Below the pieces are notes generated by a model, which was not told where the DNA came from, made no database searches, and was given only the letters and a program-made list of their open reading frames with translations. The translations under genes and the position numbers were made by a program. Below, piece by piece: positions 19,488 to 38,947 of a stretch of 51,708 nt of DNA. This stretch comes from an uncultured Gammaproteobacteria bacterium (GTDB lineage Bacteria; Patescibacteriota; Microgenomatia; CAZETR01; Amesbacteraceae). Numbering within the stretch: the first letter of the stretch is position 1; the number at the start of each line of letters is the position of its first letter. Where the stretch lies: assembly GCA_964441445.1 (NCBI GenBank), contig CAYTYO010000001.1, positions 1-51,708 of the forward strand, in the 5' to 3' direction.

Positions 19488-20609
19488 ATGAAGGCAACCG
19501 TTTTACAGACAGATTTCAATAAATGGTTAAGTGTGGTGACAAGAGTTGTGCCAAGCAGGGGACAGTTGCCAGTTTTGGCGAACGTATTAATTGAAGCAGA
19601 AAAGGAGGGATTGGTGCTGTCGGCAACAAATTTGGAAATAGGCTTACGTGTACAGGTCGGAGGGAAGGTAATTGAACAAGGGGCTGTAACTGTTCCGGCT
19701 AAAAATTTCAGTGAATTTGTGAGTTCTTTGCCGTCCGGGAATGTTGATTTGGAGACAGACGGGGAGAAATTAAAAGTTGCAGGGGGAAAGTTGTCGGCAG
19801 TTTTTACCGGAATTGCAGCCACAGAATTTCCGGTCATATCCAGGTTGGAAAATGTTAAGGATGAGAAAAAGGTAATCAAACTGAAGAGAAAGATTATTGA
19901 GGAGATCTCCAAAGAGGTTGCTTACTGTGCCGCAATGGATGAGAGCAGACCGGTGTTGACAGGGGTGCTGTTTAACGTTGAAGGAACAGTAATGAAAGTG
20001 ACGGCCACGGATGGATTTAGATTAGGCCGAAAGACAATAAAACTGGATGAAGAAATTACAGGATTAGAGAAGGGGCTGATTTTACCTGCCAGGACATTAA
20101 CGGAAATGGCCAAGATACTAAGTGAAGGAAAAAAGGAGGAATTAGAGTTAGGACTAGTGGGAGAAAGCAATCAGGCGGTGCTGGGGTATGACAATGCAGA
20201 AATGGCCTCGAGAGTATTGGAAGGAAATTTTCCCGATATGGAGAAGATTGTACCGAAAGAGTGGAAAACCGAGGTGGTTGTGGACAGAGAAGAAATACTG
20301 CGTGCAGTGAGAGCGGTGGGAATTTTTGCCCGGGATAGCGCTAATGTGGTGAGATTTGTGGTGGAAGGAAACAAATTAGGAGTGGAGGCTAGCGCAGCAC
20401 AAACGGGAGAGAGTAAGGTTACAGTAGAAGCGGAAACAGAAGGTGAGGACGTTTCCATTGCGTTTAACTACAGATATGTTTTGGATTTTCTGGGGAGTAC
20501 GGAGGCGGAAAGAATAAGGTTGAGGATAAACGACAGTTTAACTGCAGGAGTATTCGGAATTGATAAAAGTGAGGAACTTATTCACCTAATAATGCCGGTG
20601 AGAGTCTAA
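19488..20609 (+). CDS. dnaN: DNA polymerase III beta sliding clamp
   Basis: 373 aa directly after dnaA. Motifs LPVLANVLIEA, ATNLEIG, TATDGFRL and the end LIMPVRV. Confidence 0.93.
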   Translation: MKATVLQTDFNKWLSVVTRVVPSRGQLPVLANVLIEAEKEGLVLSATNLEIGLRVQVGGKVIEQGAVTVPAKNFSEFVSSLPSGNVDLETDGEKLKVAGGKLSAVFTGIAATEFPVISRLENVKDEKKVIKLKRKIIEEISKEVAYCAAMDESRPVLTGVLFNVEGTVMKVTATDGFRLGRKTIKLDEEITGLEKGLILPARTLTEMAKILSEGKKEELELGLVGESNQAVLGYDNAEMASRVLEGNFPDMEKIVPKEWKTEVVVDREEILRAVRAVGIFARDSANVVRFVVEGNKLGVEASAAQTGESKVTVEAETEGEDVSIAFNYRYVLDFLGSTEAERIRLRINDSLTAGVFGIDKSEELIHLIMPVRV

Positions 20610-21061
20610 GGGAGAGGATCTAAATAGTATACTTTAATAGTTGAAGGAACCTTAATTCTCTCCAGAGTGGTTTTTACTTCGGATTCCACATCTTTTTGAG
20701 TGAATCCAGTTTTGAGTCTGACGCGAATAGATTTTTTTTCAAAGTCATAAATCAACAAAAACCGGTCAGTAATTATGGGTAATTTAGTGAGAAAAGGCAT
20801 GTCATTTATTACCTTTGAAGTATAAGCACTTATTTCAAAGTCAATGGCGGCTTGCATCTTACCTTGTTCGATAATATTAGGTGAGAGGGCGGTTGTAGGA
20901 ATTACTTGAGAAGTGGGGGTGATAGTAGACGCGGGCGGATTTGTTTGAGGATTAGTTGTAGGAGTTTTTTCAGTTGTTATAGATATGGAAATAGCCATAA
21001 CAATTAAAATAATCACTAATGTGACGGCGTTTTTTTTTAAAAATGTTAGTATTTTTTTCAT
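20606..21061 (-). CDS. Hypothetical bitopic protein (TM plus Thr/Pro linker plus a domain of about 90 aa), last gene of the T4SS-like operon
   Basis: N-terminal TM VTLVIILIVMAISISI. No recognisable motif. Overlaps the upstream gene by 4 nt. Confidence 0.5.
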   Translation of the reverse strand: MKKILTFLKKNAVTLVIILIVMAISISITTEKTPTTNPQTNPPASTITPTSQVIPTTALSPNIIEQGKMQAAIDFEISAYTSKVINDMPFLTKLPIITDRFLLIYDFEKKSIRVRLKTGFTQKDVESEVKTTLERIKVPSTIKVYYLDPLP

Positions 21062-21915
21062 CGTGAGCCAAAACCTACAATTGATAAATCACCCCACCTG
21101 GCGCTAAGACCACTGATGGTATAGGCAGTACTTTTTAAACTGTTGTTTGATTCTACAGTGATGATGGCATCTCCGGGAAGTATTTGCCAAACCATGGCTA
21201 CATGGTCACCATTGCGGCCACGAGGACTACCGTCTCTGGCAATAATAATTGCGTCGCCCTGTTTAATACGCGAGGGATTGGCTAGAGCCTGGTTGATATC
21301 GACGTAACGGTTTTGGTTGACAAACCAGCTGCGCATACTAGGGGTGTAGATACAGTCTGGACATATAGATACGCCGGTTTCTGAGAAAGCCTTGATTGGC
21401 AGATACGTGCACCAGAATAAATTTTGACCACCAACTGGAGGGAAAGGGTTCGCTTGGAAGGCAGCCATATCAAACAACTCCGGATAATCGGGAGAGCGGT
21501 TCCAGAAACACCAAAAACCCCGGTATAGATTGTTAACAATGGTCCACGCACGGCTGCTGGTTGGGTCACCCGCAGAATTGGAGAAACTTAACGGTTCGTA
21601 ATCAGGGGTGCAACTGACGGGAGTTCCATCCCAGAGTGCAGTACGAAGCAGTCCCTGCGGTGTTACAAAGGCGGAGGCATTCATAATAAAAACGATGACA
21701 ACGAAGGTCATCCAAATAGTAAAACCTATGCCTGTGGCAATAGACACGATAACCATTAGATGAAAAAAATCTCTGGATATTGACTTTTTGAGCCCCAGAC
21801 CAAATCTTTCTGACGAAGACTTTTTTCCAAAAATTCCGGCTCCACCACCAAAAAGATCTTTGGTTTTTCCGAGAAAATTGCGAACAAAGGAAATTGGGGA
21901 TGTAATTTTTGCCAT
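21058..21915 (-). CDS. CHAP/NlpC-P60-like cell-wall hydrolase, membrane anchored (VirB1-equivalent role inferred)
   Basis: One TM. Candidate catalytic Cys in NLFWCTYLPIKAF and His in GDHVAMVWQI...ITVESNN. Confidence 0.5.
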   Translation of the reverse strand: MAKITSPISFVRNFLGKTKDLFGGGAGIFGKKSSSERFGLGLKKSISRDFFHLMVIVSIATGIGFTIWMTFVVIVFIMNASAFVTPQGLLRTALWDGTPVSCTPDYEPLSFSNSAGDPTSSRAWTIVNNLYRGFWCFWNRSPDYPELFDMAAFQANPFPPVGGQNLFWCTYLPIKAFSETGVSICPDCIYTPSMRSWFVNQNRYVDINQALANPSRIKQGDAIIIARDGSPRGRNGDHVAMVWQILPGDAIITVESNNSLKSTAYTISGLSARWGDLSIVGFGSR

Positions 21916-22196
21916 CAGGAATTAATTTTTTCGAGAATTAATAAAGGAAGTTTAAGGAGGTGATCTTTTTCTTCCTGGTATTTATTGGCAAAATGCTCAT
22001 CTGACTCATGAACTTCAATCAGATGTCGGAGTTCTTGCGGGGATTTGGAGAGAATTTGGCTGGCCCAATTCCAAAGAGGGGCTGAGGCGGAGGAAAAACT
22101 TTCAAGCTCTTTGTTTTCGTTACAAATGGAGATGATGGAGTTTTCCAATTCACTGATGACCGACCGGTCTAAATATTCGGGGAACGAAAAATTCAT
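21915..22196 (-). CDS. Hypothetical acidic 93-aa cytoplasmic protein
   Basis: ORF tightly coupled between the VirB4-like and CHAP-like genes. No motif recognised. Confidence 0.4.
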   Translation of the reverse strand: MNFSFPEYLDRSVISELENSIISICNENKELESFSSASAPLWNWASQILSKSPQELRHLIEVHESDEHFANKYQEEKDHLLKLPLLILEKINS

Positions 22197-24052
22197 TTTT
22201 GTTCGGCTTGAGCAACTAAGTGAGCCTTGATACCGGCTTCAACTTGTTTTTGGGCTAAGATTTCCGAGGGTTTGGTGGTGATCAATTTATGCTCGTCGGG
22301 TGAAGCGACAAATCTAACAGCAACATGATTATTACCAGCAAAGAATAAACCTTCGCCGACATTGGCACTGAGCAAAAGATGTTTTTCTCCTTCGGAGAGA
22401 TAAAAAACCTGAGTAATTTTGTCTACACCGGCAGGTGACTGTTTCATGAGAATTTGAATTGAAGAGTTGGTGACGATGGCTTTGCCGAAATCGGTGTTAA
22501 GAAAATCTTCCACATCCTGAGTGATGGTGGTTAGCCCGAGGAAATATTTGCGGGCACGTTTGGCGACACCGTAAAGAAAATTGGCAGAGTCGGGATAGCG
22601 CATGAGGTACCAGGCTTCATCAACCACAAGAATGCGTTTTTTGAGGTCACGGCGCATTTTGGTCCAAATGTAATCAAGGATTATAAATATTGCAATCGGT
22701 TTAAGAGAATCTTCAAGATCCCGGACAGAGAAGACGGTGAATTGGTTTTTTAACTGGACATTAGAGGGCTGATCAATGATGCCGGTAAAGCTGCCCTTGA
22801 CGAACCGCTCAATGCGATCGGCCAATGAAAGGGCCAATGGTTCCTCCATGCCGATGAAAGCCTTGTACAAGTCTTCCATGAGCGGAGGAGTGTTCTTTTG
22901 AGTTGATGGGTCGGGGGTAATGCCTTTCATTTTGTAAGCTAACCCCAGTGCCCGATCCAGAAGGGCTTCTTCTGTCGGGTTAAGGTCTCCCATGATGACT
23001 TTAAACATGGAGTGGAGAGATTGAATTTTGAGATTTAGTTCATTTTCTTCGGATGTTTCAGTGAGAAGAGATAAATCAAAAGGATTGATACGATTTTGGG
23101 AACTGTAGGCAAAATTAAGGTAGTCGCCACCCACGGCATCACAAAGAGTTTTATATTCGTTTTCAGGATCGATGACTATAACCTCAGTGCCGAACATAAG
23201 TGATCTGAGGATTTCCAACTTGACCGTATATGACTTCCCGGCACCGGCTTTGGCAAAGACTACAGTATTGGCATTTTCAAGGGTGAACCGGTCAAAGATC
23301 ACCAAACTGCCGTTGTGCTGGTTGATGCCGTATAAAATTCCTTCATTACTGGTAAGCTCTGACGAGGTGAAGGGAAACGTGGTAGCCAATGAGGTGGTAT
23401 CCATGTTTCGGGTAACCATAAGATGATCGACACAGGAGGGGAGAGTGTTTTTAAAGCCTTCAGCCTGTTGGAGAAGGGTTGGAGTGGCTTGAACCAGGAG
23501 GGCAGAAAGGGAACTGCTGACCTGTTTACTGGTGGTTTCCAGTTCTGACGGCGAGTCTGTGGGGATAGTGACATAGAGAGAGAACTGGAAAAACCGTTCG
23601 ATGCCTTTTACCAGGGAGTCTTGGAGAGTCATAGCGTCTTCCAATTTGGCCTGGGTGACTGGGTTTACGACCCGACCACGCTGAATATCAGTGGAGATTT
23701 CGGCACCCATTTCGGCGATTTTGCGGCGGAGATCATCCAAAGTACTTTTGCTTTCGACGGGATAGATGAACATGGAGATGCGAAGCGAGTGATCAAAATT
23801 GATAATCGGACCGAGCCAGTTGCTGGAAACAAACCGACGATTAATATTGGTAAAGAAGCTGCGGTAATAGCTGTCATTGATTTTTAAAACATTAAAATCC
23901 ACAGTTGCAGATTGCGGAGCGATAATGTCGCGGACAGTTTTGGCTTCTTTAAGTGTTTTTGTGGGCAAAATGCGGGAGTTGTCTACAGTAGCGGTTGGCT
24001 TAACCTGGGCTGGTTGAGAAGGTGTGGCGGCTTTGGATTTAAACAGCTTCAT
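22193..24052 (-). CDS. VirB4/TrbE/PrgJ-family T4SS ATPase
   Basis: Walker A FAKAGAGKSYTV, Walker B ILVVDEAWYL, downstream GLTTITQDVEDF. N-terminal YYRSFF...SSNWLGPII...ISMFIYPV block, typical of VirB4. Confidence 0.8.
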   Translation of the reverse strand: MKLFKSKAATPSQPAQVKPTATVDNSRILPTKTLKEAKTVRDIIAPQSATVDFNVLKINDSYYRSFFTNINRRFVSSNWLGPIINFDHSLRISMFIYPVESKSTLDDLRRKIAEMGAEISTDIQRGRVVNPVTQAKLEDAMTLQDSLVKGIERFFQFSLYVTIPTDSPSELETTSKQVSSSLSALLVQATPTLLQQAEGFKNTLPSCVDHLMVTRNMDTTSLATTFPFTSSELTSNEGILYGINQHNGSLVIFDRFTLENANTVVFAKAGAGKSYTVKLEILRSLMFGTEVIVIDPENEYKTLCDAVGGDYLNFAYSSQNRINPFDLSLLTETSEENELNLKIQSLHSMFKVIMGDLNPTEEALLDRALGLAYKMKGITPDPSTQKNTPPLMEDLYKAFIGMEEPLALSLADRIERFVKGSFTGIIDQPSNVQLKNQFTVFSVRDLEDSLKPIAIFIILDYIWTKMRRDLKKRILVVDEAWYLMRYPDSANFLYGVAKRARKYFLGLTTITQDVEDFLNTDFGKAIVTNSSIQILMKQSPAGVDKITQVFYLSEGEKHLLLSANVGEGLFFAGNNHVAVRFVASPDEHKLITTKPSEILAQKQVEAGIKAHLVAQAEQK

Positions 24053-24816
24053 GTTTTAGGGGTTGAAGGATTGATAACAGCTGAATTAACGGTGGAAGCA
24101 GCGGGTGGAGCTGCTGGTGTGGGGGAGGGAGGAGCTGAGGCCGGGGGTTGAGGGCTGGCGGAAATTGGCATGGCTTCTGTTCGGGGAAGAGAAACATGCG
24201 TACCAATAGAGTCGGGGTTGTAGGCATCGAAATAAAACTGGAGAATTTCCGGAGAAGTAAGCTGACGACCTTTAAGACCAATGCGGGTGAGCAAACGAAG
24301 CAAATGATCACGTTTGGGAGCAAGGTTAGTTGTAGCTCTGTCGATAATATATTCTTTGGGCAGGCGGGATTTGGCAGTTTGGCCACCTAGGGATTTAATA
24401 GAGGAAGAAATACCCAGCTCGAGAGAGCTGAAAGGAATAGAGATATAAAATTTCTTGTCAAGAACATTACCCTGGCGAACTATGGCTTTGACGAAATCCC
24501 GGTATTTGGTCATCTGATCTTTTACTTTAGGAGAAGTGATAGTAGCTAACTGAGCATCAATTTTGTCAATATAGCTCGAGATATCTTTGCGTTTACTGAC
24601 GACGACGATTTGGATGGAGAAGGTAAGGGAGTTGAGAAGTTGGGCATAGGAATAGATGGTTGCGTCCTGTTCTCGCTCGGATAAAAGGCCAAAATTTACG
24701 GCGTTGACGTCCAAGATCATGCAGGCTGAGCCATCGGAGAGGATGACAATATCATTGATGATGTCATCAACATCCAAAAGATCCTGAGTGCGAGGGGGGA
24801 AAGGATTTTTGCTCAT
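24049..24816 (-). CDS. VirB4 N-terminal-like protein with Pro-rich tail
   Basis: DIVILSDGSACMILDVNAVNFGLLSEREQDATIYSYAQLLNSLTFSIQIVV resembles the extreme N-terminal module of Gram-positive VirB4 ATPases. 4-nt overlap with the ATPase gene. Confidence 0.45.
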   Translation of the reverse strand: MSKNPFPPRTQDLLDVDDIINDIVILSDGSACMILDVNAVNFGLLSEREQDATIYSYAQLLNSLTFSIQIVVVSKRKDISSYIDKIDAQLATITSPKVKDQMTKYRDFVKAIVRQGNVLDKKFYISIPFSSLELGISSSIKSLGGQTAKSRLPKEYIIDRATTNLAPKRDHLLRLLTRIGLKGRQLTSPEILQFYFDAYNPDSIGTHVSLPRTEAMPISASPQPPASAPPSPTPAAPPAASTVNSAVINPSTPKT

Positions 24817-25847
24817 ACTTTTTTACCTTGAAGAATAACAGGCGGAACAATGTTACCTTTAACCTGAATTGAAACAGGGTCGAATTTAAGACCTTCCTTT
24901 TCAGCAAGAATATTGTAGGTTCCAGCCGGAAGCGGAATGGCGATTTGAAACTGACCTAATTTGTTGGTACGCAGGGCTCTGGCCGGAATGCCGGTATTAG
25001 TGTCAACTATTTCCACGGTGATCTGAGGCAGGGGTTGATTGGCGTCGTCGGTGATAAGTCCGGAAAGAATATTGGGGCTGGTAGGTGAAGAAATAAGAGA
25101 AGTAGTGGGGGCGGAGGGTGCTGAGACCAACGTGGAGGTTTGAGGAAGTTGGGAGGATTTGGTGTAGAGAGAAACAGAGGAAGTGGTGGGGGCTGTAGGC
25201 AGAGTGGGAGTTGGCTGGGAGATGGAGGAAGCAGGAGAAGGACTAGATGAAGCAGTATCGGACGGAGCGGAAGTGGCTACGGGTTGGCTATTAGGTGCGG
25301 ATGGCGGAGTTGTGGGAGCACCAAACACTTTGGATGTGGTAGTTTCTTTTCCAACAGGGACGGAACCTGAGCGGTGAAGTTTTGAGGCAATAAATTCTGA
25401 GAATGACGGGAGAACAATAGTGTGGGCAGGGGCGGGCTTGGCAGGAGGAGGTGGTGGGGCAGAAATTGGAGGAGAAGCTGATTTAGAGGCGGGAGGTGAA
25501 GCAGGAGAAGGGGCTGTAACGGGGGTAACAGGGGGAGGCGGAAGGACAGAATCGATAACAGCCTGAGGTATCCAGACAAATTCAGTGGGACTATAAATTG
25601 CTTTAACAAAAGCGCTGAGCCAGGAAGAGAAAGGACGACCGTTGATGGGGATGAAAGCCAAAAGAACACCGATTAAGACAGATAGCCCTGCCAGGGGATA
25701 TTTAACAACGGCGATAATTTCCAGTCTGAAAAACATGTAGCCGACGAGGATGCCTCCGGCCAACTGCAGGAATTGTTTTAAGGTCATGTCACCGACAAGA
25801 TGAAACTCGTAAGAAGAAATATTTTGAGGAACAGGATGATTTTCCAT
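24813..25847 (-). CDS. PrgI/VirB3-like membrane protein fused to a P/S/T-rich linker and a carboxypeptidase-regulatory-like beta-sandwich
   Basis: The N-terminus ISSYEFHLVGDMTLKQFLQLAGGILVG plus two TMs is PrgI-like. The C-terminus ITVEIVDTNTGIPARALRTNKLGQFQIAIPLPAGTYNILAEKEG is CarboxypepD_reg-like. Confidence 0.55.
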   Translation of the reverse strand: MENHPVPQNISSYEFHLVGDMTLKQFLQLAGGILVGYMFFRLEIIAVVKYPLAGLSVLIGVLLAFIPINGRPFSSWLSAFVKAIYSPTEFVWIPQAVIDSVLPPPPVTPVTAPSPASPPASKSASPPISAPPPPPAKPAPAHTIVLPSFSEFIASKLHRSGSVPVGKETTTSKVFGAPTTPPSAPNSQPVATSAPSDTASSSPSPASSISQPTPTLPTAPTTSSVSLYTKSSQLPQTSTLVSAPSAPTTSLISSPTSPNILSGLITDDANQPLPQITVEIVDTNTGIPARALRTNKLGQFQIAIPLPAGTYNILAEKEGLKFDPVSIQVKGNIVPPVILQGKKV

Positions 25848-26137
25848 ATATAAACGGCTTGATTAATCCTAACGCATGAAGTGGCAAATGCAAGTTAATG
25901 TTTTCACAGAAATTTCCGAGTAAAATTAATGAATGAAGAAGAGTGAAAAACTGGCAAATTGGATAATCACCGGTTTAATGGCGGCGTTTACACTTTTAAT
26001 CGGGTTAGGTGCCGTTTTTTTAAAAACAATCGGGAAGCTGTGCGGATGCTTTTAACACTAGCCTATAGTTGTTTGGGTGTGATAAAATAGGCAAGTTGTA
26101 TAGTATTATTTATTAATAAGCATAAAAAGCAAATATT

Positions 26138-29100
26138 ATGGGAGAAGGCATGATGTTTAACGATGGTTTTGTGAGAGGGCCAGATACTGGCGGGGGCGGC
26201 GGTGGAACAGTTGATGCGGAACAATCCAGGGTTGATAATCTGGCGAAAGAATATTTGAAAAGGACAGGAAGGCCGTTTAAAGATTATGTCTTGGAAAGAA
26301 TTGAAGGGAAGATACCAACTACGGGAGAACAGAAAGAAAGGAGAAGAGCAGATGATGAATTTAGTTCCTCAATCAGTCCTGAACAACGAGATGTGGTGGA
26401 GAGGGTAGTTGCAGAAGAAAAGGCGGCGCTTCGAGGAGAAAAGGCGATTGAAGGACGATCTCCGATAGTAACGCAGGATGATTGGGAAAAATATACTCGG
26501 CCAGATAAGACTAGTGGAAAAGGAGGATCGGGTGTGATAGTGGCTGTTCAGACAGCAGCTGAAGCTACACCAGAACAGAGAGAAACTGAATTTGACAGGA
26601 GGGTGGCCGAGGAGGTCCAACGGGAGGAGGATGAAGCAAAGCGAGAAGCACGAGATGTTGACTTGGCCAAAGTGGCAAAGAACTTAGCTCAAGCCGCAAA
26701 GATATTTGGACTGGCTTGGGGGGTTGGAGAGGCTTTTGAGGAAGCCACAGAGTTTCTTCGAGAGAAGAGGAAAAATGGAGAGCGCGTGAGTATAAGGCAA
26801 TTTGAGAAATGGAAGAAAGAGAGAGTACAACAGACAAATATACCCAATGCTGTAATATCCCCACCTCCGGAACAATCAGTACTTGAGGAAAAGCTAGGAG
26901 AAAATGAGGAATGGAACAGAGACATGCAAAAGTTGGCCGAATTATGTAGACAGGAAGAACGCGGTGCGCAGTTGCCATCAGAGGAGAAAGAAAAAAAAGT
27001 TTTGCGGGACAGAATAAATGAAATGTGGGATAAATTTAAAGGACCCGATACTGAAATACAGCGGCACGACACATGGAAAGACGCGGTTGCGGGAGTAATT
27101 GATGACATAATCAAACGTGACGCAGATGTAAAGAAGGAGAGGGAAAAGGCTTTAGTTCCTCAGGGGGCTCCAGATAGATACAATCCATTGTCTTTAGCAG
27201 AGGAATATTTAGACCGCACAATTAATGAAATTGTGCGGAAAGGCGAGGATGGGAATCCACCGCCAGATGAGGAAGATTCTATAAAGTTGGATTGGTACAG
27301 GGGAGTAAAAAGGAACGTGCAGGAAGCTGCTTTAAAGGCAGAATTGGCGTTATATAGCGATTTGGGTTTGGAGAACAGACCGGGGTGGGACATTATTGTC
27401 GGGGAAACTAAGAAGTCTTTGGCCAAACTTAAATTGGAAATAGATTACCTAAATTTTGGTGACGGGATAAGAGATAACACTAAGCGGCGACTTGCCGGCT
27501 TGGCGACTCGATATGTTGATTATATACAGACTGAGGGAGATCAGGCTGAGGCATTAAAAAAAGTGAATGAAGATAAACAAAAGGCAGCAGAGCGTGCAGA
27601 AAGAGAGAAAAGCAAACCTGTAGACAAGGGAGCAGAGTCTATAACTAACCCTGAATACTTAAAGAAAGAAGCGTTAAGGGTCTTGGCATTAGTCATGATC
27701 AGGGGGTATGCAGATCCGACAGACATGACGGTTATAAGGGCCGGTCTAAAACATATGGACGCCAGAACGGAGAAACTGGCAACCACCGATTTACAAATAT
27801 TGGAAGATTTAGACGGGATAAATCCATTAGATTCAAAAACATATATCTCCATGAACTGGGACAGGGAGAACCTAATGATGTGTTTAGAAGGAGAGACAAG
27901 AAGAGTCACCCAAAGAAGGATAATTCAATTAATGGGTTTAGATATGGCATACTCCGGCGTAGAAGTGGGTAAAGACTGGGCAAATAAAGTGAATCGACAC
28001 AAGAAACTTGGAGATTTTCTTGACCAATCAGTGTTTCGTAATTATATAAATGAGTTAGGGCAAGAGGTAAGGGTCGATAAAGATATGAAAAATCTGGAGT
28101 TTTGGGAGTTGTCCCCAGGACAATCAGAAACATTTAAGTTTTTGCTGAGGAGACAAGCTGCTATAGATAGTGGGGCAAGTAATGTTGATGAGGCCGCAAA
28201 GGGTGATGATATTAAAAGGGAAGTGGGGGCTGCTATCCAGATATTGAGAAACATGCATATTGGGGATAAGTTGTCGTTCAATCAAGATCATTTAATGGCG
28301 ACTCCGGCGTACTGGTATTTCCATATGTATGGAGCGGCTTTAGACAGAATAGCCAAAGTGCCAATGCATTCCAGGTGGAGGCCATATATGAAGTTTCATA
28401 AAGACCAGTTTCCTGAATACCCAGAACAGAAAAACGATGAGGGTGAAAGTTTAGGATTACCAAAGAAAGAGGTGGCGCCCATGGTGCACAGATTGTTTCC
28501 GGAAGACTGGTTCAACCCAATAGCAGTTGAGAGTTCGTTGTTTGATGAAAAAGGCGCTAGGCAAATGACTTATATTGATTTTTTGCGAGAGGGAGATAAG
28601 GGTAGAGTTCCTCAACCAGGCGAGTTTACGACCACAAAGCAAAAGCTTACAAAACAGTACGGTTTTGCCAATGCCGGGCAAAGACGAGTGTGGGATGTTT
28701 TGTTCGGGGGGAGTGATTATATAGATTTGAAAGTCGGTGCGGGCGAGAGTAATAAATGGAAGGTTGAAGTCGACTTAACTTTTGATCCGAACAAGGCATG
28801 GATGGACGGGCTGGGAACAGCAATAAATGTTACTGCTGGGGATATGGGATTGACAAAAAGATTTGTGGATGCGGATCCATCAACGGAGGCTGGCAGACAG
28901 GAGAGAGAAACAGTTGAAAAGCAAATTCAACAAATCGGGGGTGTTTTGGCGATGGCGGCTGTCGGACTAGGGCTGGAGCGAGACACGTTGAGCATTAAAG
29001 ACTTGTCAGCGTGGGCAGTGGGAGTGTCGCTTGAAGGATTAACGTGGACATTGGCTCCAGATGTAAAAGCAAGGCTGATCTCCGAAGAAACGGCTAAGTG

Positions 29101-29518
29101 GATAAAGTGGCACGGAAAGCCCACCATTAAAGAAGCCGAAATGGTGGTGAGAGGTTGGTTTAGTCAAGTACGTTTGCAACGGGGGGAAAATTGGCAAGAC
29201 TATTATGAAAGGGATTTGAGAGGGGATCTTCCACCGCAAGATGAAGATTTGATCGCAAGATTGCGTTTCAGAGCGAGTGGGCTGGTTGGACTTCAGGAGG
29301 CTATGGAGGTGAAGAAAAGATTAGATTATCGTCGGAGAGATGGCTGGACCAACACTTGGTTTGGAGGAGCAGGCACTTTTAGTGAGCGAGACTGGAGGGA
29401 ACAGAGGTCCAACAATAAATTTATGATAAACGCATTTAAATTGATGGACAATGGCCATCTCTTGAATATTGCAACTACTCTGAACCTGAATATTTACGAG
29501 GCTGGTAAAACTAAGTAG
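26138..29518 (+). CDS. 1126-aa orphan protein, highly charged N-terminal half, Trp-rich C-terminal half, no TM or signal peptide
   Basis: Uninterrupted ORF with strong purine bias on the coding strand. I found no P-loop or other catalytic motif. Confidence 0.7.
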   Translation: MGEGMMFNDGFVRGPDTGGGGGGTVDAEQSRVDNLAKEYLKRTGRPFKDYVLERIEGKIPTTGEQKERRRADDEFSSSISPEQRDVVERVVAEEKAALRGEKAIEGRSPIVTQDDWEKYTRPDKTSGKGGSGVIVAVQTAAEATPEQRETEFDRRVAEEVQREEDEAKREARDVDLAKVAKNLAQAAKIFGLAWGVGEAFEEATEFLREKRKNGERVSIRQFEKWKKERVQQTNIPNAVISPPPEQSVLEEKLGENEEWNRDMQKLAELCRQEERGAQLPSEEKEKKVLRDRINEMWDKFKGPDTEIQRHDTWKDAVAGVIDDIIKRDADVKKEREKALVPQGAPDRYNPLSLAEEYLDRTINEIVRKGEDGNPPPDEEDSIKLDWYRGVKRNVQEAALKAELALYSDLGLENRPGWDIIVGETKKSLAKLKLEIDYLNFGDGIRDNTKRRLAGLATRYVDYIQTEGDQAEALKKVNEDKQKAAERAEREKSKPVDKGAESITNPEYLKKEALRVLALVMIRGYADPTDMTVIRAGLKHMDARTEKLATTDLQILEDLDGINPLDSKTYISMNWDRENLMMCLEGETRRVTQRRIIQLMGLDMAYSGVEVGKDWANKVNRHKKLGDFLDQSVFRNYINELGQEVRVDKDMKNLEFWELSPGQSETFKFLLRRQAAIDSGASNVDEAAKGDDIKREVGAAIQILRNMHIGDKLSFNQDHLMATPAYWYFHMYGAALDRIAKVPMHSRWRPYMKFHKDQFPEYPEQKNDEGESLGLPKKEVAPMVHRLFPEDWFNPIAVESSLFDEKGARQMTYIDFLREGDKGRVPQPGEFTTTKQKLTKQYGFANAGQRRVWDVLFGGSDYIDLKVGAGESNKWKVEVDLTFDPNKAWMDGLGTAINVTAGDMGLTKRFVDADPSTEAGRQERETVEKQIQQIGGVLAMAAVGLGLERDTLSIKDLSAWAVGVSLEGLTWTLAPDVKARLISEETAKWIKWHGKPTIKEAEMVVRGWFSQVRLQRGENWQDYYERDLRGDLPPQDEDLIARLRFRASGLVGLQEAMEVKKRLDYRRRDGWTNTWFGGAGTFSERDWREQRSNNKFMINAFKLMDNGHLLNIATTLNLNIYEAGKTK

Positions 29519-29527
29519 TGCTTTTTG

Positions 29528-31321
29528 TTAAGTGTCGGCGCCACCTGGTGTTGGGTTACTTGCTCCACCACTACCTAGGGTTCTTTTCGGCCTGGCCCCT
29601 TGACCACCAAGAGATGTATATCTATCATCAAGAGCTTTGTTTATAGATTCTCCGGCTTTTTGTCCGGCGGAGGTAAACTGACCGATAGTGTCCTTGACGG
29701 TATTTTCGATAAAGTTGCTGGGGTCATCAGATTTACAGAACATGTTCTTGATAGATGATACTATATTCGGAACCATAGACATAAAGCCGACGTAAATAAG
29801 GTATTGGAGGAAGAAGTTCCTTGGATATCCATTTTGGAAAATGGGAAGATCAAATCCAGAGCGAATATGGGGGCCGCCGGGAACGTTTTCAAAGCCGGCG
29901 AGAGTGACGTTGTCAAAAAGAAGTGAGATGAAGATAGAGAGAACAGCGTAGGAAACAAAGACAGAAGCGTTACCAATGATACACATAATCCATTTTTTAA
30001 ATCCACCCGTGGAAGTGGGGAGAATGTCCATAATAATCATAATCGGCCCGGCGATGGTCAATAAAATAAGAGATAGATACGCCACTATAAGTTGGCCGAT
30101 AATACGAGCCCAGAGGTAAACTGACCACATGAAGAAACCCATTATGATGCCCAATAGAGGGGCAACAACAGAAGCTGCACCTATTGTGACCCAGGCAGCA
30201 GCAATTGTGAGAACGATCGTAACAATTAATAGAATAATTGCGACCACTATGTACCAAAGTAAAAATCTGCCGACGAAGCTGAACGGTCCGGTCATGTCGG
30301 TGACGGCTGCATTGAGGTCATTTATCATAGTAAACCCGGTAACACCCTGAGCAAAGGAGATAAAGCCAAGCACAGCAACTATTACGACGTAAATCATGTC
30401 GATGACAAACCCGACGATGGCAAAAGAAAAGGTGACTAAAATAAGTGAAAGGACGAGGCGGGGAATGACCATTTGAATATTGACTGAAGCCTGAGCAGAT
30501 ATTTTTGTCCTAAATATTGTCATGAACCCAGCAACCACGAGAAGCACAACGCCAATAAGATAGGCAACGTTACGGGTGGCTATCCACAATCCACGGACGG
30601 TACCCATTCCCAGCTTCTCATAGCCTAACCCTTGGGCATAAGCCGGGGAAGCGATATCAAGTTTGCTGGCCATAAATTTCACTTCATCTACACCAGAGGC
30701 AATTTTGTCGGTAAAAATCCAACCTGGAATCTGGGCCATAACTGAGTATGTCTGCCCTATGAAACCATATTTAGGAAGAACACTGGGGATAATTGATGCC
30801 GTACCAAAACTGTTAACGGTTTCACCAGCTTCATTGATAGCATCAATAATTTCCGATATCATCTGGAACAACTCAAGGACATCATTGGCTCGAAGCGGCG
30901 GGAACAACATAACGACAAATGAGTTAAATATCCACTTAACCTGCGCATAGGTATATCTTTCGCCAAAAATTTCATCAGGGTTAGAGTCGTCAAACACCAG
31001 GCGGGCAAATTGTCTGGGGTCAGGGTCGTACCAAGGTTGCGGAGGAGGGGTGGAAAAAGCCACGCGGGCAATTTGATACACAACGGCTTCACAAAGGCTG
31101 ATATTGCCATCAAAGACAGTGTTGGTAATTAATCCCCCAAAAACGGAGCAGGTATATCGAGCTCCGGGCGGATCCCCAGGAGGGGAACCACTACAGTAAG
31201 GTTCTTCAGCGTTGGGGGGACACTGAGCCTGGACCGATTGAAGGGGTTTGACAAGAATGGACGAGAAAACGGTAACGAAAGTGAGCAAAAAAAGGAAGGC
31301 GGTTTTAGCAAACTTTTTCAT
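29528..31321 (-). CDS. Polytopic VirB6/TrbL-like membrane protein with signal peptide and a Cys-containing ectodomain of about 200 aa
   Basis: Signal peptide ending VQAQ, then at least 7 hydrophobic helices across aa 240-470 and a hydrophilic C-terminal tail. The call rests on topology and context only. Confidence 0.4.
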   Translation of the reverse strand: MKKFAKTAFLFLLTFVTVFSSILVKPLQSVQAQCPPNAEEPYCSGSPPGDPPGARYTCSVFGGLITNTVFDGNISLCEAVVYQIARVAFSTPPPQPWYDPDPRQFARLVFDDSNPDEIFGERYTYAQVKWIFNSFVVMLFPPLRANDVLELFQMISEIIDAINEAGETVNSFGTASIIPSVLPKYGFIGQTYSVMAQIPGWIFTDKIASGVDEVKFMASKLDIASPAYAQGLGYEKLGMGTVRGLWIATRNVAYLIGVVLLVVAGFMTIFRTKISAQASVNIQMVIPRLVLSLILVTFSFAIVGFVIDMIYVVIVAVLGFISFAQGVTGFTMINDLNAAVTDMTGPFSFVGRFLLWYIVVAIILLIVTIVLTIAAAWVTIGAASVVAPLLGIIMGFFMWSVYLWARIIGQLIVAYLSLILLTIAGPIMIIMDILPTSTGGFKKWIMCIIGNASVFVSYAVLSIFISLLFDNVTLAGFENVPGGPHIRSGFDLPIFQNGYPRNFFLQYLIYVGFMSMVPNIVSSIKNMFCKSDDPSNFIENTVKDTIGQFTSAGQKAGESINKALDDRYTSLGGQGARPKRTLGSGGASNPTPGGADT

Positions 31322-31376
31322 TTTGATATTTATACTTTAGTGCAACGGGTGTTAATAGGCAATATTGATTAGCTAG

Positions 31377-34300
31377 TTATGGAAAAGGAAAAGCGCAGCT
31401 GCCGCCGATCCAACCCCATTTTTGGATAAGGCCGTTAGCATAAACATCTGAAGCGGCAGTGGGGATACAAGAGTTTCCAACTAAAAACATGGCAGCAAAG
31501 ACCCTTGCCCCTCCATAGGTACTGATTGCGGAGGCACACATGGAACGGTAAGCATTTACTGTTTGAAGGAAGCCGGTTATTTGCTGATCGAAGTTGTTGG
31601 GCGTGCTATACGGGCCGACATGAATACCGAAATCTTCGACCGGTGTTGCCCATAAGTAATTGCTGGAGTCTGACTCGTTGAGCCAGATTAGTAGAGCCAG
31701 ACCCGGATTAACACCAGCTTCTCCGGCGCGAAAGACAACGTCGTTGTAACACAAAGCGGCGTGAGTTCCTTCTGGCATTGAGGTCCAATCTTCAGCAATA
31801 CGAATATAGTTGTCACGGTTAACACAGGCCGCGTTTTGTTCACCGATGGAGACGTTGCAATTTATACCTGCCGCGGATTGAGAAGCTGATCCGGTTGTCC
31901 AACCAACAAACCCGCGAGGACGCAGTAGACGTTGAAGATTAAGATTATCCGGGTTAGGCAAACCCAGAATATTATCAGCAAGACTGCCAACATGAGGGAA
32001 GTAGAGAGCACCACTTCCGCCTTCGCCCGCGGTATAAGAGGTATTGTCCAGATCATTTGTGGCGGCGGTGTAGGTCGAGACTGATGTGGCAGGAACGGTA
32101 TTTTCTCGACCCGATTTGAGGCTCCAAGAACTGGAAGCGGAGAGGGGGAGTTTGGGTAACCAGCGCTTGAGGAGCGACTGTGGATTGGTGACTAGCAAGT
32201 CATAAACTTTTTCAATAAGGGGAGTTTCAGTAAAAGGGTGGACACGAGCGGCCGAGCGCAGGTCAATAGTCGGCCAGCTGGGACAACTGCCCAAGGTATG
32301 TGGTTCCCAAGCACAGTATGGCTGTTGAGCGTTGCAATCAGTTTCGTTTCCGATAGCAGAACAGACAGTAGCATAGTTAGGGTCAGTAAAGGTACAGGTA
32401 AAAACTCCGGGTGGGCAAGTACCCCAACAACAATCACCGGTACCTATGCCATCACATTCATTTCCCTCCTCTACACACGAACCCCGATCGCGACAATTGC
32501 CCCGGGGCGGGTTGCAATTGCAATCAATAACCAATTGCGGAGTATATTGAAAGAGTTGGTAATAGGTGAGGGTGGCATTCACTTCTTGGCCGATAAGACT
32601 ATCAGCTTCATTGGTACGAGTGTCGTCGATGTCACATAAGGCATCTAACGGAACATATAATGGGGTAGGTGCTGGCTGGCCTTCCCGAACCGAGGTGTTG
32701 CGGATTAGGTGGCCTTCGGAATAAATGCGAAGATAACCGATTTGCCCCGCCACATCCTGAGCATTGTAAACCGGAACGCCGGGATTACGATCGTCTTCTC
32801 CCTGGACGATAGTACTGTCTGCGATTCCCTGATGTTCGGTAATTCTTTGTGAAACTAAATCGGGATCGTCGTATGAAAGTCCAGACCGATATTCAATGGG
32901 GATACCAGTGGGGCGGCGTGTTGGTGCGGGCGATACGGAGCTTGTGGGAATACACCAGTGCGGATTACTATTGGCGCAATCTTGTGGAGATCCAGAGTGG
33001 ACAGTACAAGCGTCATATGAAGTGTAACCCGGGCCACAGTTAGTAGCGTTAGGGTTTACGCTGCAAACAGATGTGCTGGTTTGGTATACACAGTCGAAGG
33101 TGTTCGATGGCGGAACAGCTGTGGGAGTTGGCCCGGTAGGAATACACCAATGGGGATTGCTATTGGAACAGTCGAGAGCGGAGGATGAATGAGGAGAACA
33201 AGCATCATATGTGGTGTATCCGGGTCCACAATTATTGGTGACGGGATTCACGGAACAAGAGTAAGTACTGGGGTTATATATACAACCAAAAGTATTAAAA
33301 GACTGAGATGGTATGGGCGTGGTGGGGATGCCAACGGGGGTGTGGAGGGCGTTAGCTAAACTGGATAAGGCTATTGCGGCACGAAGATGAGGAAAATATA
33401 GTCGGGAATCTGACCCGGTATTAATAGTTAAGCTCATGGAAAGGATTTGGCCGTTTATATCTGTTGGCTGCAGAGAGGGGATAAGACTAACAGTAAATTC
33501 GCCGGTAGTGTCTTCGAGCGAAGAAAACGGAACATAACGCATAATCCAATCGTCATTTTCGTCGACCGAATTTAAACGACGACGGGTGTTACTGGTAGCG
33601 CAGGACTCAGCTAAGTCGGTACGAAAAGCTTCAATAACTTGGCCGAGCCGGGCCAGATTAGACTGGCCAAGTTCAATAAAAGTGGAAAAGACATCGACAG
33701 ACCTGTTAATACCAATTTGGGCAAATACCAGAGCGACATTTGCTGCGGTAAAGTCGTCTTCGGGGAGGAAAGCCGATCTGATCAGGGCGCGGCCGACCAT
33801 CCAGAGACGGGAAATATCGTGTTCGGCTAAATCAAAAATTAAATTTGCCATAGCCAAGGGGCTAGTGACAAGAGCGTTAAAAAAGAAGCGAATAACTTCC
33901 CTGAGTGCGTTGATAATATACGCGGCGTCTATGTTTCTTTGACAAGCTACTAAATAGTTGTGATACATAGATCCCGGTCCCGTTTCAGCCATGGTAACTT
34001 TGAGCGGATCACGGAATTCTTTTGGATATAGCTTGTTAAGCGGTCCAGAAAAGGTGGTGATTTGTTTCCGGTCATCATTTTCATAATGAATGAGAGGTTG
34101 CTGACTAGATTGATAAACAGTGCCGTTTAAATACCAACTGAGGTAGCCGTTTACTTTGTCGGCGTCGACCAGCTCATCCTGAGTGTTGCCGGAGAACGGT
34201 AATTCAACTGAGGACAAATCAAAATGAGTGTTCCAGGTAATCCTCTGAACAAAACAAACAGCGTTGTGGTCATTTGAACAACGGAAATAATCTGTTCTAC

Positions 34301-34712
34301 CATCGGCGTCAAGTTGTTGACGGATTTCAGCGTCAGCGAGGGGGTTTGCGGGCATGATATCCATATTGCAGATATTCATTACATCATCCGCCGGAGTGGT
34401 GCCAACGACGTTTAATGATTTGGCACATTTATAAGTGATGTATTTATTTTCCGGGTCAACGGAGAGGGGGGCTTCAGGATCTTTTTTAGGGATTAACGGA
34501 TCACACGGGTTGCCAGGATATGGGCGAAGTGGGTGAAATTCACTTCCACCGCCAGTGGTGGAAGCACAGGGAAAATTGAAGGGGTGCGGCCAAGGGGGTT
34601 GAACGTAGCTTTGGTAAGAACGAGAACTAGCTGCGGTGGGAGTTTGGGCTTGGACAAAGGAAGGAAAAAAGAGAAGAATCAGGGTAAAAAATACAGAAAA
34701 AAAAGTGGGCAT
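31377..34712 (-). CDS. 1111-aa secreted Cys-rich protein (candidate pilus-associated adhesin or tip protein)
   Basis: Signal peptide ...SFVQAQ. Two tandem 64-aa six-Cys modules. A knottin-like Cys cluster (CNCNPPRGNCRDRGSCVEEGNECDGIGTGDCCWGTCPPG). Follows the pilin array by 24 nt. Confidence 0.7.
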   Translation of the reverse strand: MPTFFSVFFTLILLFFPSFVQAQTPTAASSRSYQSYVQPPWPHPFNFPCASTTGGGSEFHPLRPYPGNPCDPLIPKKDPEAPLSVDPENKYITYKCAKSLNVVGTTPADDVMNICNMDIMPANPLADAEIRQQLDADGRTDYFRCSNDHNAVCFVQRITWNTHFDLSSVELPFSGNTQDELVDADKVNGYLSWYLNGTVYQSSQQPLIHYENDDRKQITTFSGPLNKLYPKEFRDPLKVTMAETGPGSMYHNYLVACQRNIDAAYIINALREVIRFFFNALVTSPLAMANLIFDLAEHDISRLWMVGRALIRSAFLPEDDFTAANVALVFAQIGINRSVDVFSTFIELGQSNLARLGQVIEAFRTDLAESCATSNTRRRLNSVDENDDWIMRYVPFSSLEDTTGEFTVSLIPSLQPTDINGQILSMSLTINTGSDSRLYFPHLRAAIALSSLANALHTPVGIPTTPIPSQSFNTFGCIYNPSTYSCSVNPVTNNCGPGYTTYDACSPHSSSALDCSNSNPHWCIPTGPTPTAVPPSNTFDCVYQTSTSVCSVNPNATNCGPGYTSYDACTVHSGSPQDCANSNPHWCIPTSSVSPAPTRRPTGIPIEYRSGLSYDDPDLVSQRITEHQGIADSTIVQGEDDRNPGVPVYNAQDVAGQIGYLRIYSEGHLIRNTSVREGQPAPTPLYVPLDALCDIDDTRTNEADSLIGQEVNATLTYYQLFQYTPQLVIDCNCNPPRGNCRDRGSCVEEGNECDGIGTGDCCWGTCPPGVFTCTFTDPNYATVCSAIGNETDCNAQQPYCAWEPHTLGSCPSWPTIDLRSAARVHPFTETPLIEKVYDLLVTNPQSLLKRWLPKLPLSASSSWSLKSGRENTVPATSVSTYTAATNDLDNTSYTAGEGGSGALYFPHVGSLADNILGLPNPDNLNLQRLLRPRGFVGWTTGSASQSAAGINCNVSIGEQNAACVNRDNYIRIAEDWTSMPEGTHAALCYNDVVFRAGEAGVNPGLALLIWLNESDSSNYLWATPVEDFGIHVGPYSTPNNFDQQITGFLQTVNAYRSMCASAISTYGGARVFAAMFLVGNSCIPTAASDVYANGLIQKWGWIGGSCAFPFP
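32946..33296 (-). repeat. Tandem duplication inside the 1111-aa gene (two copies, 192-nt / 64-aa period)
   Basis: NTFGCIYNPSTYSCSVNPVTNNCGPGYTTYDACSPHSSSALDCSNSNPHWCIP versus NTFDCVYQTSTSVCSVNPNATNCGPGYTSYDACTVHSGSPQDCANSNPHWCIP. Confidence 0.85.
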
Positions 34713-34736
34713 GGAATCATTGTAGCAGAGGATAAA

Positions 34737-35105
34737 TTATATACATGCTCCTGCCTGGCGATTGATACAGATATCAAATACAGTGACATTGATCCCCAAG
34801 AATGTGCCGATTAAGCCAAGAATAACCCAGGCGGAGAGAGAAATGATTAAACCACCCAGGGCATAGGTGAGTGTTTGCTGTGCTAATGTGGTGGCTTGTT
34901 TATCGGCACCTGCTGATAAGTAACGGTAACCGCCATAAAGCAGCATGCCGAGCGAAGCTAAGGAAATAAGCGGAATTATGATACGAAGAAGGTTAGAAAA
35001 TATCGCATTCAAATCCTCGATTTCTGCAGGAGGGGCATCGTTTTGGGCGTGGGCGGAGTTGGCTAATAAAAAAAAGAAGGTAAATATATACGAGAAAATA
35101 GACAT
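34737..35105 (-). CDS. VirB2/TrbC-like T4SS pilin paralog 12 (122 aa)
   Basis: Signal peptide ...SAHAQ. Two helices flank LLYGGYRYLSAGADKQATTLAQQTLTYALGGLIISL. Confidence 0.65.
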   Translation of the reverse strand: MSIFSYIFTFFFLLANSAHAQNDAPPAEIEDLNAIFSNLLRIIIPLISLASLGMLLYGGYRYLSAGADKQATTLAQQTLTYALGGLIISLSAWVILGLIGTFLGINVTVFDICINRQAGACI

Positions 35106-35131
35106 GGTGTTGATTTGATATTAGTTTAATA

Positions 35132-35161
35132 AAACAATCCCGGCAAGAGCCGGGATTGTTT
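35132..35161 (-). terminator. Rho-independent terminator after pilin paralog 11
   Basis: Minus strand AAACAATCCCGGC-TCTT-GCCGGGATTGTTT, followed by TATT. Starts 18 nt after the stop codon at 35180-35182. Confidence 0.65.
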
Positions 35162-35179
35162 GTCGATCGGACTTGACGG

Positions 35180-35605
35180 TTACTCGGTGCCAATCGTTTG
35201 CAGATTGACTTGAATAAGGTCGACGCCGAACAAAACTCTGATGATATACAGCAGAGCATAAGCTGAGAAGACGATGGCCAAACCGATTAAGGCCGCAGTA
35301 ATCTTTTTGCGGGCTTTTTCAGTACCTTCTTTATCTCCTCCGGCCAAGATCCATTGCAGACCACCCCAAAGCAAAACAACGAAGGAAATCACTCCAGCAA
35401 CACCCAACATGATATTAAGAATGGTTCTTAACATGTCAGACGGGGTGAAAGCGGTTAGAGGGGCGAAATCTTCGGAAATGTTAGCGATTGAGGCTTGGTC
35501 CCCACCATCAATAGACTGGAGTTCAACCTGGGCTAAAACATTTGCGGGATGAGCTATAAATGGAATTGCAGCAACGACTGAGGAAGCAATTTTTTTAAAG
35601 TTCAT
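35180..35605 (-). CDS. VirB2/TrbC-like T4SS pilin paralog 11 (141 aa), candidate major pilin
   Basis: Signal peptide ...NVLAQ. Core LLWGGLQWILAGGDKEGTEKARKKITAALIGLAIVF. Has its own promoter, SD (GGAGGTGA) and terminator. Confidence 0.7.
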   Translation of the reverse strand: MNFKKIASSVVAAIPFIAHPANVLAQVELQSIDGGDQASIANISEDFAPLTAFTPSDMLRTILNIMLGVAGVISFVVLLWGGLQWILAGGDKEGTEKARKKITAALIGLAIVFSAYALLYIIRVLFGVDLIQVNLQTIGTE

Positions 35606-35635
35606 AATTTGATCCTCACCTCCATTTCAGGAGAA

Positions 35636-35646
35636 AGTATAGCACA
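35636..35646 (-). promoter_or_regulatory. Extended -10 promoter element TGTGCTATACT upstream of pilin paralog 11
   Basis: Read on the minus strand, 30 nt upstream of the ATG at 35605. Close to the TGTGCTATATT 11-mer seen at 45745 and 50203. Confidence 0.5.
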
Positions 35647-35662
35647 AATGGCCAGGGGAGCT

Positions 35663-36052: not shown

Positions 36053-36098
36053 GGGCTGGTTTTTAGTTTAGCGGAAGTATCTTCCGGTTACAAGTTAA

Positions 36099-36749: not shown

Positions 36750-36752
36750 AGA

Positions 36753-37079: not shown

Positions 37080-37082
37080 TTT

Positions 37083-37472: not shown

Positions 37473-37476
37473 AATA

Positions 37477-38228: not shown

Positions 38229-38236
38229 TGTGTTAT

Positions 38237-38934: not shown

Positions 38935-38947
38935 AGTAGGGTATAAA

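Follow-up and report, generated by a model that had tools for sequence, protein, structure and literature searches.

Background

A large part of bacterial diversity consists of Patescibacteria, which have an epibiotic way of life, and the systems closest to the one studied here are their type IV secretion systems (T4SS), which have been described as dnaA-proximal, relaxase-less, equipped with a pilin array and of Gram-positive ancestry (PMC12102498). In Southlakia epibionticum, the one member open to genetics, the T4SS is essential for epibiotic growth, as determined by transposon sequencing (Tn-seq), and the substrates of the Patescibacteria T4SS are unknown (PMC10633639, PMC12857230). Here, we present an analysis of a 51,708-nucleotide stretch of DNA, hereafter the window (GenBank assembly GCA_964441445.1, contig CAYTYO010000001.1, positions 1 to 51,708), which carries what is, judged by its gene content, a dnaA-proximal T4SS of Gram-positive type from the ultrasmall Candidatus Amesbacteria (Microgenomates), with emphasis on one large plus-strand gene (26138..29518, +) that lies between two minus-strand T4SS operons. 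The gap between the PrgI/VirB4 and the VirB6/pilin operons is called the slot in the following. We find that relatives usually fill this slot with a distant homologue of the gene, that the slot is an allelic cassette whose content is swapped through recombination among strains that are near-identical elsewhere, and that the encoded protein may be a T4SS-dependent host-interface protein or substrate, a reading to which we assign a probability of about 40%.

The closest described loci are of the MPF_FATA-like type (PMC12102498), including SEML1_0004-0019 of Southlakia (PMC10633639), and the window resembles them in its VirB4 of Gram-positive type, in its TrsD-like and PrgI/VirB3 proteins and, tentatively, a VirB6-like one, in its cell-wall hydrolase and divergent array of VirB2-like pilins, and in adjoining dnaA and dnaN with no relaxase or type IV coupling protein (T4CP) nearby. 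The locus type is thus one already described; the slot, its hypervariable giant occupant and a small peptide with a CxC motif that precedes it are not mentioned there, as the descriptions contain no opposite-strand giant soluble gene, variable cassette or CxC peptide (PMC12102498, PMC10633639). In Southlakia, compared with the window by description only, the interval from PrgI to the VirB6-like genes is on the same strand and encodes VirB6-like/ARM-repeat and NTF2-like proteins. Like the extended VirB6 proteins of Rickettsiales and Southlakia (PMC12857230), the slot protein is a large hydrophilic and helical polypeptide linked genetically to VirB6; unlike them, it is a separate polypeptide encoded on the opposite strand, with neither a transmembrane (TM) helix nor similarity to TrbL or VirB6. 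The slot gene of the window is a T4SS-linked accessory or substrate-like gene that belongs to no named family.

Two further groups of systems invite comparison. Modular T4SS effectors, such as the Xanthomonas X-Tfe with their XVIPCD and the Bartonella Beps with their BID, combine a conserved delivery domain with a variable functional part. The slot protein is likewise T4SS-associated, has no Sec signal, joins a conserved module to diversified sequence and has apparently undergone module exchange; unlike these effectors, it has no XVIPCD, BID or other known domain, its better-conserved module is N-terminal or central instead of C-terminal, its gene has no T4CP nearby and no adjacent immunity gene, and its translocation is only a candidate property. 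With the polymorphic toxin and contact-dependent systems CdiA-CT and Rhs, the slot gene shares allelic cassettes that are exchanged between close strains and a sharp junction between shared and divergent sequence. It differs from them in having no toxin domain in Pfam, NCBIfam, PADLOC, PDB or Foldseek searches, in having no immunity ORF behind it, where only 9 nt separate it from the convergent VirB6 stop, and in being apparently homologous over its whole length, with no unrelated tips and with the N-half the more variable one in one pair.

Family members and slot occupancy

The slot gene is present in the window as an open reading frame (ORF) of 1126 aa at 26138-29518 (+), for which the chance probability of an open frame of this length is ~5e-33 at the local base composition. 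The GGAG at 26141-26144 favours ATG 26150 as the start, which would give a protein of 1122 aa and matches the database gene call. Among non-nested plus-strand ORFs that reach 80 aa, it is the only one within 20.6-40.5 kb, and it splits the T4SS locus into two minus-strand blocks, in agreement on both points with an earlier reading of the window, made from the letters and their ORFs and here called the sequence-only reading. The same reading described the gene as an orphan, which goes too far: 7 homologues of 926-1282 aa were recovered when 1.84 billion representatives were searched exhaustively with HMMER, a profile search added another (P0009), and the mining of loci brought the number of distinct members to 14, with lengths of ~800-1280 aa (802 to 1282). 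Other routes added little, as word-index searches, dominated by E/K-rich words, returned 2, 3 and 1 proteins, a motif scan of the GTDB representative genomes with the core alignment gave no relative, and a metagenome scan gave two more loci only, both equivalent to known ones.

A VirB4-profile scan of the GTDB species representatives yielded 18 loci of 74-85% identity, nearly all from Candidatus Amesbacteria, and it is through these loci that the window was assigned to this group. For the slot survey, ORFs were mapped in 28 loci, among which 18 distinct loci cover the slot, and 14 of these 18 hold a family member in the same place and orientation. Every homologue is encoded opposite the T4SS operons, tail-to-tail with a VirB6-like gene for 573-613 aa, beyond which follow a gene for ~1000-1200 aa and then the pilin array; on the other side, where contigs extend, lie PrgI, TrsD, VirB4, dnaN and dnaA. 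As regards co-occurrence with the flanking T4SS genes, which the sequence-only reading proposed as a check, every homologue sits in a T4SS slot. Members are still present in relatives whose VirB4 identity is as low as ~73-78%.

The other four loci differ in content. Three of them (L015, L017 and L019) have large slot ORFs of 569-855 aa that show no detectable similarity to the family, and hhalign comparison of the family profile with these ORFs and with extra upstream genes gave no homology; in the fourth (L024), the slot contains nothing but the small peptide and a gene for 134 aa. The sequence-only reading had named absence from homologous loci of relatives as something that would speak against its view of the gene, and this is what L024 and, with unrelated ORFs, the three others show, as opposed to the 14 of 18 loci with a family member. 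Because L024 has no large slot gene and three relatives carry unrelated ORFs, the gene is an accessory and not a core part of the locus. The slot itself is best described as a conserved position with variable content, of which this family is, on the present set of loci, the usual occupant.

The GC content, GC3 and codon usage of the gene are typical of the window, the outcome of a comparison that had also been suggested beforehand, and a foreign origin was rejected on the basis of this native composition. An unrelated insertion, one of three possibilities raised by the sequence-only reading, was discarded for this family on the same grounds together with the shared position and orientation of all homologues. 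The possibility of a spurious ORF was likewise rejected, given the homologues, the purifying selection described below and the chance probability above.

Divergence, cassette exchange and mosaicism

The slot protein had the lowest identity in every comparison of a relative with the window. Global identity to the window is 73-90% for VirB4, 57-69% for DnaA, 53-80% for DnaN, 51-76% for the TrsD-like protein, 45-60% for PrgI, 27-56% for VirB6, 22-49% for the 1111-aa protein behind VirB6 and 18-30% for the slot protein. The boundary can be sharp: the DNA similarity of locus L002 to the window ends ~55 nt into the gene, and none was found for the remainder.

The clearest case is a pair of contigs (L021 and L022) from one metagenome-assembled genome (SRP342105_co1_501), which align over 11.7 kb with 93% DNA identity. 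Their VirB4 and DnaN proteins are 100% identical, TrsD 99%, PrgI 97%, the homologue of the 1111-aa protein 88% and VirB6 67%, and their slot proteins 29%, with no nucleotide alignment across the slot; the diverged tract begins ~270 nt before the VirB6 stop. This pair is direct evidence of within-population cassette polymorphism, and the difference between the two slots is one of allelic replacement by recombination, not of gradual drift. As a separate matter, the near-identical halves from dnaA to PrgI could stem either from two co-binned strains or from a duplicated origin region.

The fact that the diverged tract spans the slot gene and also runs into the 3' end of VirB6, among alleles exchanged between near-identical strains, brings to mind a determinant of self and non-self. 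In conjugation, F-like and SXT systems have such specificity pairs in TraG-Eex/TraS. By analogy, the slot protein would act in exclusion or kin discrimination as the allele-specific partner of a variable VirB6 tail, a pairing that would either block T4SS engagement among Amesbacteria cells or steer it, and the last ~57 aa of VirB6 are indeed that protein's least conserved part. Known exclusion proteins, however, are small membrane proteins or lipoproteins, and the slot protein is soluble and 1126 aa long; the adjacent small membrane peptide is conserved and not variable; and the VirB6 tail class of the window, when tested, did not follow the C-terminal module class of its slot protein. We therefore regard an exclusion function as very improbable.

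Two modules can be distinguished in the slot protein of the window, with the junction at aa 625/629. The N-module (aa 1-625; 26138..28012, +) comprises a Gly-run, a charged helical region and a conserved core, and is similar to P0003 of L002 over aa 1-625 (41%) and to P0002 of L001 over aa 16-603, with identities of 40-43% for L001 and L002. The C-module (aa 629-1126; 28022..29518, +) belongs to a sequence class that it has in common only with P0006 of L006: phmmer aligns residues 629-1091 to residues 424-891 of P0006, and BLAST of the C-half against L006 gives 24-26% over 419-503 aa. No similarity of the C-half to the C-halves of L001 or L002 was detectable, and L006 does not resemble the window in its N-half. 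Across the family, the C-halves fall into at least 4 classes, which cut across the groupings of the N-halves. Since the whole length still looks homologous, with D355, N389 and W1003 invariant in the family and a weak C-terminal motif common to its members, we read this mosaic as recombination among deeply diverged alleles and not as a fusion of unrelated domains.

For the pair L003 and L010, dN was 0.165 for the family member and 0.073 for VirB6; dS was saturated even in this closest usable pair, and dN/dS is only bounded. The N-half is the more variable one in this pair. The estimates indicate that the protein is under purifying selection and evolves about twice as fast as VirB6.

Protein properties and predicted structure

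The slot protein has no predicted TM segment (maximum Kyte-Doolittle mean over 19 residues 1.14), and motifs of the Walker A, LPXTG or lipobox type are absent, consistent with the absence of TM segments and of a P-loop stated in the sequence-only reading. The protein is acidic, has a GGGGGG run at aa 18-23 and contains 39.6% D/E/K/R in its first 500 residues, as rich in these residues as had been noted; the remainder, called Trp/Tyr-rich before, is only mildly enriched, with 2.9% W and 2.7% Y. The conserved core within the N-module (aa ~290-495; 27005-27622, +) was delimited by motifs from two family alignments, namely WKDxV, NPL, WYxGVKRNV, AELALY, YLNFG and RYVDYL.

Searches with the single sequence or with a profile gave no family in Pfam, PHROGs, NCBIfam, PADLOC or the PDB sequences, and the earlier statement that no family could be assigned stands. 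When the 9 family members were compared with Pfam at E <= 1, only scattered one-off noise was found, and a TrbL match was absent from all 9 even at that threshold. The protein has no match to a T4CP family, no Walker A and no TM anchor, which argues against a type IV coupling protein, and the lack of a TM segment and of TrbL similarity argues in the same way against an extended VirB6.

AlphaFold2 predictions for the full-length protein, based on a 9-sequence alignment, gave an all-helical model with pLDDT 53.7 and pTM 0.31, which is confident only at aa 30-120 and 290-490, with pLDDT 63-91 across aa 290-490; the C-half modelled alone reached pLDDT 40.1. At the alignment depth available, the structural search that the sequence-only reading had recommended brought no fold assignment: Foldseek with the low-confidence full-length model as the query gave no match at E <= 0.001 against PDB and BFVD. 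Taken together, the gene encodes a real, soluble protein, all-helical in the model and without a family in known libraries.

The best Foldseek matches, all non-significant, were to tape-measure, minor-tail and internal-virion proteins, and these would fit a structural or ruler-like part of the pilus apparatus that is itself exported, namely a long helical protein threaded through the channel whose sequence is free to drift, in analogy to the needle-length ruler of type III secretion systems or the tape-measure protein of phages. The great length of the all-helical protein, the spread of family lengths, the missing signal peptide and the very large pilin array of the locus are also compatible with such a component. 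The matches themselves, however, are meaningless (best E 0.068, TM-scores of 0.06-0.09, from a low-confidence model), no internal repeats or periodicity were shown in the protein, and L024 keeps the machine with no large slot gene. We know of no ruler-like component in any T4SS and consider this role a long shot.

The same soluble, helical character, with neither signal peptide nor TM segment, would also suit a cytoplasmic adaptor or scaffold docked on the inside of the VirB4/TrsD/VirB6 complex, either as a stand-in for the missing coupling protein or as a free-standing equivalent of the helical domains of extended VirB6. The tail-to-tail arrangement with VirB6, the inclusion of the C-terminal tail of VirB6 in the variable tract and the lack of a T4CP in the window are in line with this, as are the two VirB6-like proteins beside PrgI in Southlakia ML1, which bear C-terminal ARM-repeat-like helical domains (PMC10633639). 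Against an adaptor, its would-be partners are far more conserved (VirB4 73-90%, TrsD 51-76%) than the slot protein (18-30%), the latter is swapped between strains with identical VirB4, and the family is absent or replaced in 4 of 18 loci that retain the core. The protein also lacks a P-loop and has no detectable similarity to VirB6 or other T4SS families. An adaptor or scaffold is in our view unlikely; if it were one, it would represent an unusually plastic part of the T4SS machine.

The plus-strand unit and the convergent junction

In the 290-nt region upstream of the gene an extended -10 element had been noted, which held up; a small gene in the same region had been missed. An uncalled ORF at 25933..26055 (+) encodes a 40-aa peptide with a single TM segment, MKKSEKLANWIITGLMAAFTLLIGLGAVFLKTIGKLCGCF, which ends in LCGCF and whose C-terminal CxC[F/I/L] is conserved. 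Counterparts of 36-42 aa occupy the same position in L001 (1445-1567), L002 (81-203), L003/4 (7440-7568 in L003), L006/25 (9825-9947 in L006) and L010 (564-692) and, on the minus strand of the contig, in L013 (8146-8271), L024 (4337-4447) and L027 (3850-3975), and in most of these loci the peptide was missed by gene callers. No Pfam match was found for it, and L024 keeps it although the large slot gene is absent. Because conserved peptides sit at the same position across loci, the plus-strand unit consists of the 40-aa peptide, as its first gene, and the large gene. The peptide may represent a hitherto undescribed small T4SS subunit.

Between the PrgI-like operon and this unit lies a putative divergent control region (25848..25932), recognised from its sequence and its conservation across loci, and the stretch 25853-26193 has 80% blastn identity to L002. 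The TAAAAT at 25921-25926, 6 nt ahead of the small ORF's ATG, closes a block that is conserved in L001 and L002, and we infer that this block is a promoter, with a spacing that would suit a leaderless transcript. The extended -10-like element TGATAAAAT (26080..26088, +), which lies between the small and the large ORF, is kept as TG[A/G]TAAAAT with the flanks CCTATAGT..GTT in the window, L001 and L002; the generic promoter scan did not list it, and there is no -35 hexamer at this site. Rfam searches were empty near the gene, and the idea that the intergenic region holds a riboswitch or a known sRNA was rejected on this basis.

At the other end, the TAG stop of the gene (29516-29518) and the stop of the minus-strand gene for the 597-aa VirB6-like protein (29528-29530) are separated by a convergent junction of 9 nt (29519..29527). 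The close spacing and the absence of a terminator hairpin, both noted earlier, were confirmed: no terminator-like sites were found in 25000-31500, against 5.2 expected from shuffles, and RNA folding across the junction showed no significant structure (z 0.41 and 0.16). The tight junction is kept in the family, as 10 of the 14 members have gaps between -11 and +29 nt.

These conserved surroundings bear on the possibility that the gene merely travels along as cargo in a hotspot of recombination, a gap that tolerates insertions, and has a function unrelated to secretion. In some relatives the slot does hold other genes, which include a DUF4143/AAA_14 ATPase (PADLOC candidate defence family PDC-S01, E 1e-107; L017 7164-8102, L018 5374-6600 and L027 4783-6189), a four-helix 23S_rRNA_IVP protein (L017 8116-8556 and L024 4545-4949) and the unrelated large ORFs mentioned above. 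This family, by contrast, is seen only in the slot and always converges on VirB6, is usually preceded by the small peptide where upstream sequence exists (8 locus groups), persists over the range of VirB4 identity given above and is native in composition, and its junction architecture and upstream control sequences are conserved. Mere hitchhiking thus seems quite improbable.

Many relatives carry extra plus-strand genes between the peptide and the family member, one or two per locus, which encode soluble proteins of 340-794 aa (L003 7626-9950, L007 94-2478, L010 750-3017, L005 795-2357 and L009 2-2467) and have neither a Pfam match nor similarity to the slot protein of the window; in several loci there is one such gene, of 516-794 aa. 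Several of them begin with a (R)ERGGGG-like Gly run comparable to the GGGGGG of that protein, and a GGG within the first 60 aa occurs in 9 of 26 slot ORFs, compared with 3 of 136 among the other ORFs that reach 300 aa.

Proposed role at the host interface

We favour the reading that the slot protein acts in dependence on the T4SS, either as an accessory protein at the interface between epibiont and host or as a substrate that the T4SS itself would deliver. In such a scheme, the relatively conserved N-module, with its core, would engage the machine, and the diversified remainder would set the effect on the host cell, or which host cell is affected. This reading is suggested by the combination of a protein that has no Sec signal or TM segment, diverges more rapidly than the machine's surface parts and is dispensable in some relatives, and that is mosaic and swapped between strains with identical VirB4. 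The T4SS would be its route because it is the only plausible path to the host interface for a protein that lacks a signal, and the family members, wherever found, are all in a T4SS slot. Further, the C-terminal 30 aa have a net charge of 0 to +5, never net-negative, in 13 otherwise acidic members, which lends weak support to a substrate.

Several observations weigh against this reading. In the window protein itself, the C-terminal 30 aa have a charge of only +1, at the 32nd percentile; Pfam scans detected no T4SS signal and no effector or toxin domain; and there is no T4CP in the window that would recruit substrates. The structural searches brought no match, and the AlphaFold2 models are poor (pLDDT 53.7 and 40.1). 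The role as substrate or host-interface protein is inferred from the evolutionary pattern, not from direct evidence of secretion, and rapid evolution and cassette exchange would also fit specificity factors that are not secreted. As the slot tolerates unrelated cargo in some relatives (DUF4143 ATPase, 23S_rRNA_IVP), location alone is no proof of a T4SS function. Moreover, with the N-half more variable in L003 and L010, a pattern of conserved N-module and variable C-module is not general.

A stronger form of the host-interface reading, which we find doubtful, is that the slot family represents the first identifiable class of Patescibacteria T4SS substrates, giant helical proteins that would either be injected into the host bacterium or be shown to it on display. 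They would be encoded, along with the VirB6 tail, in a recombining allelic cassette, the allele of which would set the host strain that an Amesbacteria cell can exploit, and the CxC peptide would be a new small subunit. In either form, the gene is a concrete candidate for the missing cargo or specificity factor of the T4SS. The arrangement also offers a genomic signature for finding analogous genes in other lineages, namely an opposite-strand slot between the PrgI/VirB4 and VirB6/pilin operons in which a CxC peptide comes first. Direct tests are hard, as the Amesbacteria are uncultivated.

Other features of the T4SS locus and the window

The genes dnaA (17829-19211) and dnaN (19488-20609) are followed by T4SS operon A (20606..25847, -), annotated with Pfam and NCBIfam, which adjoins dnaN and encodes, in order from it, proteins of 151 aa, 285 aa (CHAP-like), 93 aa, 619 aa (VirB4), 255 aa (TrsD-like) and 344 aa (PrgI/VirB3-like). 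VirB4 matches NCBIfam NF045971 conju_CD1110 with 367 bits (cutoff 325) and Pfam P-loop_TraG with E 6.4e-30, and has the Walker A motif AKAGAGKS. The TrsD-like protein matches the N-terminal part of VirB4 (E 3.3e-8) and TrsD (E 9.6e-4), both below cutoffs. In more distant Amesbacteria, TrsD-like and VirB4 proteins are apparently fused in one ORF of 787-822 aa (L016 390-2834, L017 9278-11746, L018 7477-9840 and L019 9344-11719). Additionally, the VirB4 ORF is 1086-1584 aa long in L026 (1803-5063) and L027 (6248-11002), an enlargement that might reflect an insertion, an intein or an extra N-terminal domain.

Of the labels that the sequence-only reading had given to the flanking genes, PrgI is backed by PF12666 at 32.7 bits (cutoff 27); that of the VirB6-like polytopic membrane protein (597 aa; 29528..31321, -) depends on a sub-threshold TrbL match (16.8 bits, cutoff 25.9) and a hydrophobic block at aa 244-478. 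Operon B (31377..40507, -) comprises the gene for a 1111-aa exported protein (31377-34712, -) and 12 small genes (34737-40507, -), of which 11 match T4SS_pilin PF18895. A phage tail module, suggested by the gene sizes, was rejected with the identification of the small genes as T4SS pilins, and no relaxase or T4CP domain was found in any scanned ORF of the window.

With 12 consecutive genes, 11 of them with a pilin match, the array reaches or exceeds the maximum of the range reported for Patescibacteria (2-11). One pilin (35180-35605) has 99% protein identity to its counterpart in L002, compared with 48-62% for its neighbours in the array, which suggests gene-by-gene mosaic recombination. The first gene of operon B (39590-40507, -) encodes a 305-aa protein with a C-terminal T4SS_pilin domain, and its N-terminal part is similar to a segment of the 1111-aa exported protein, with 35% identity over 132 aa.

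The remaining part of the window has housekeeping genes, including GroEL, Sua5/TsaE, SmpB, tmRNA and tRNAs. The tmRNA (106 bits; 46861-47262, -) and smpB (45169-45630, +) are close together, and tRNA genes are located at 48056-48140 (+), 50069-50155 (-) and 50735-50806 (-). The plus-strand GC skew is positive nearly throughout the window (0.1-0.47), on both sides of dnaA and irrespective of gene orientation, with the only dip near 1-3 kb and no switch at dnaA. Should the plus strand be the leading one here, both T4SS operons would be transcribed head-on to replication and the slot gene would be co-directional with it.

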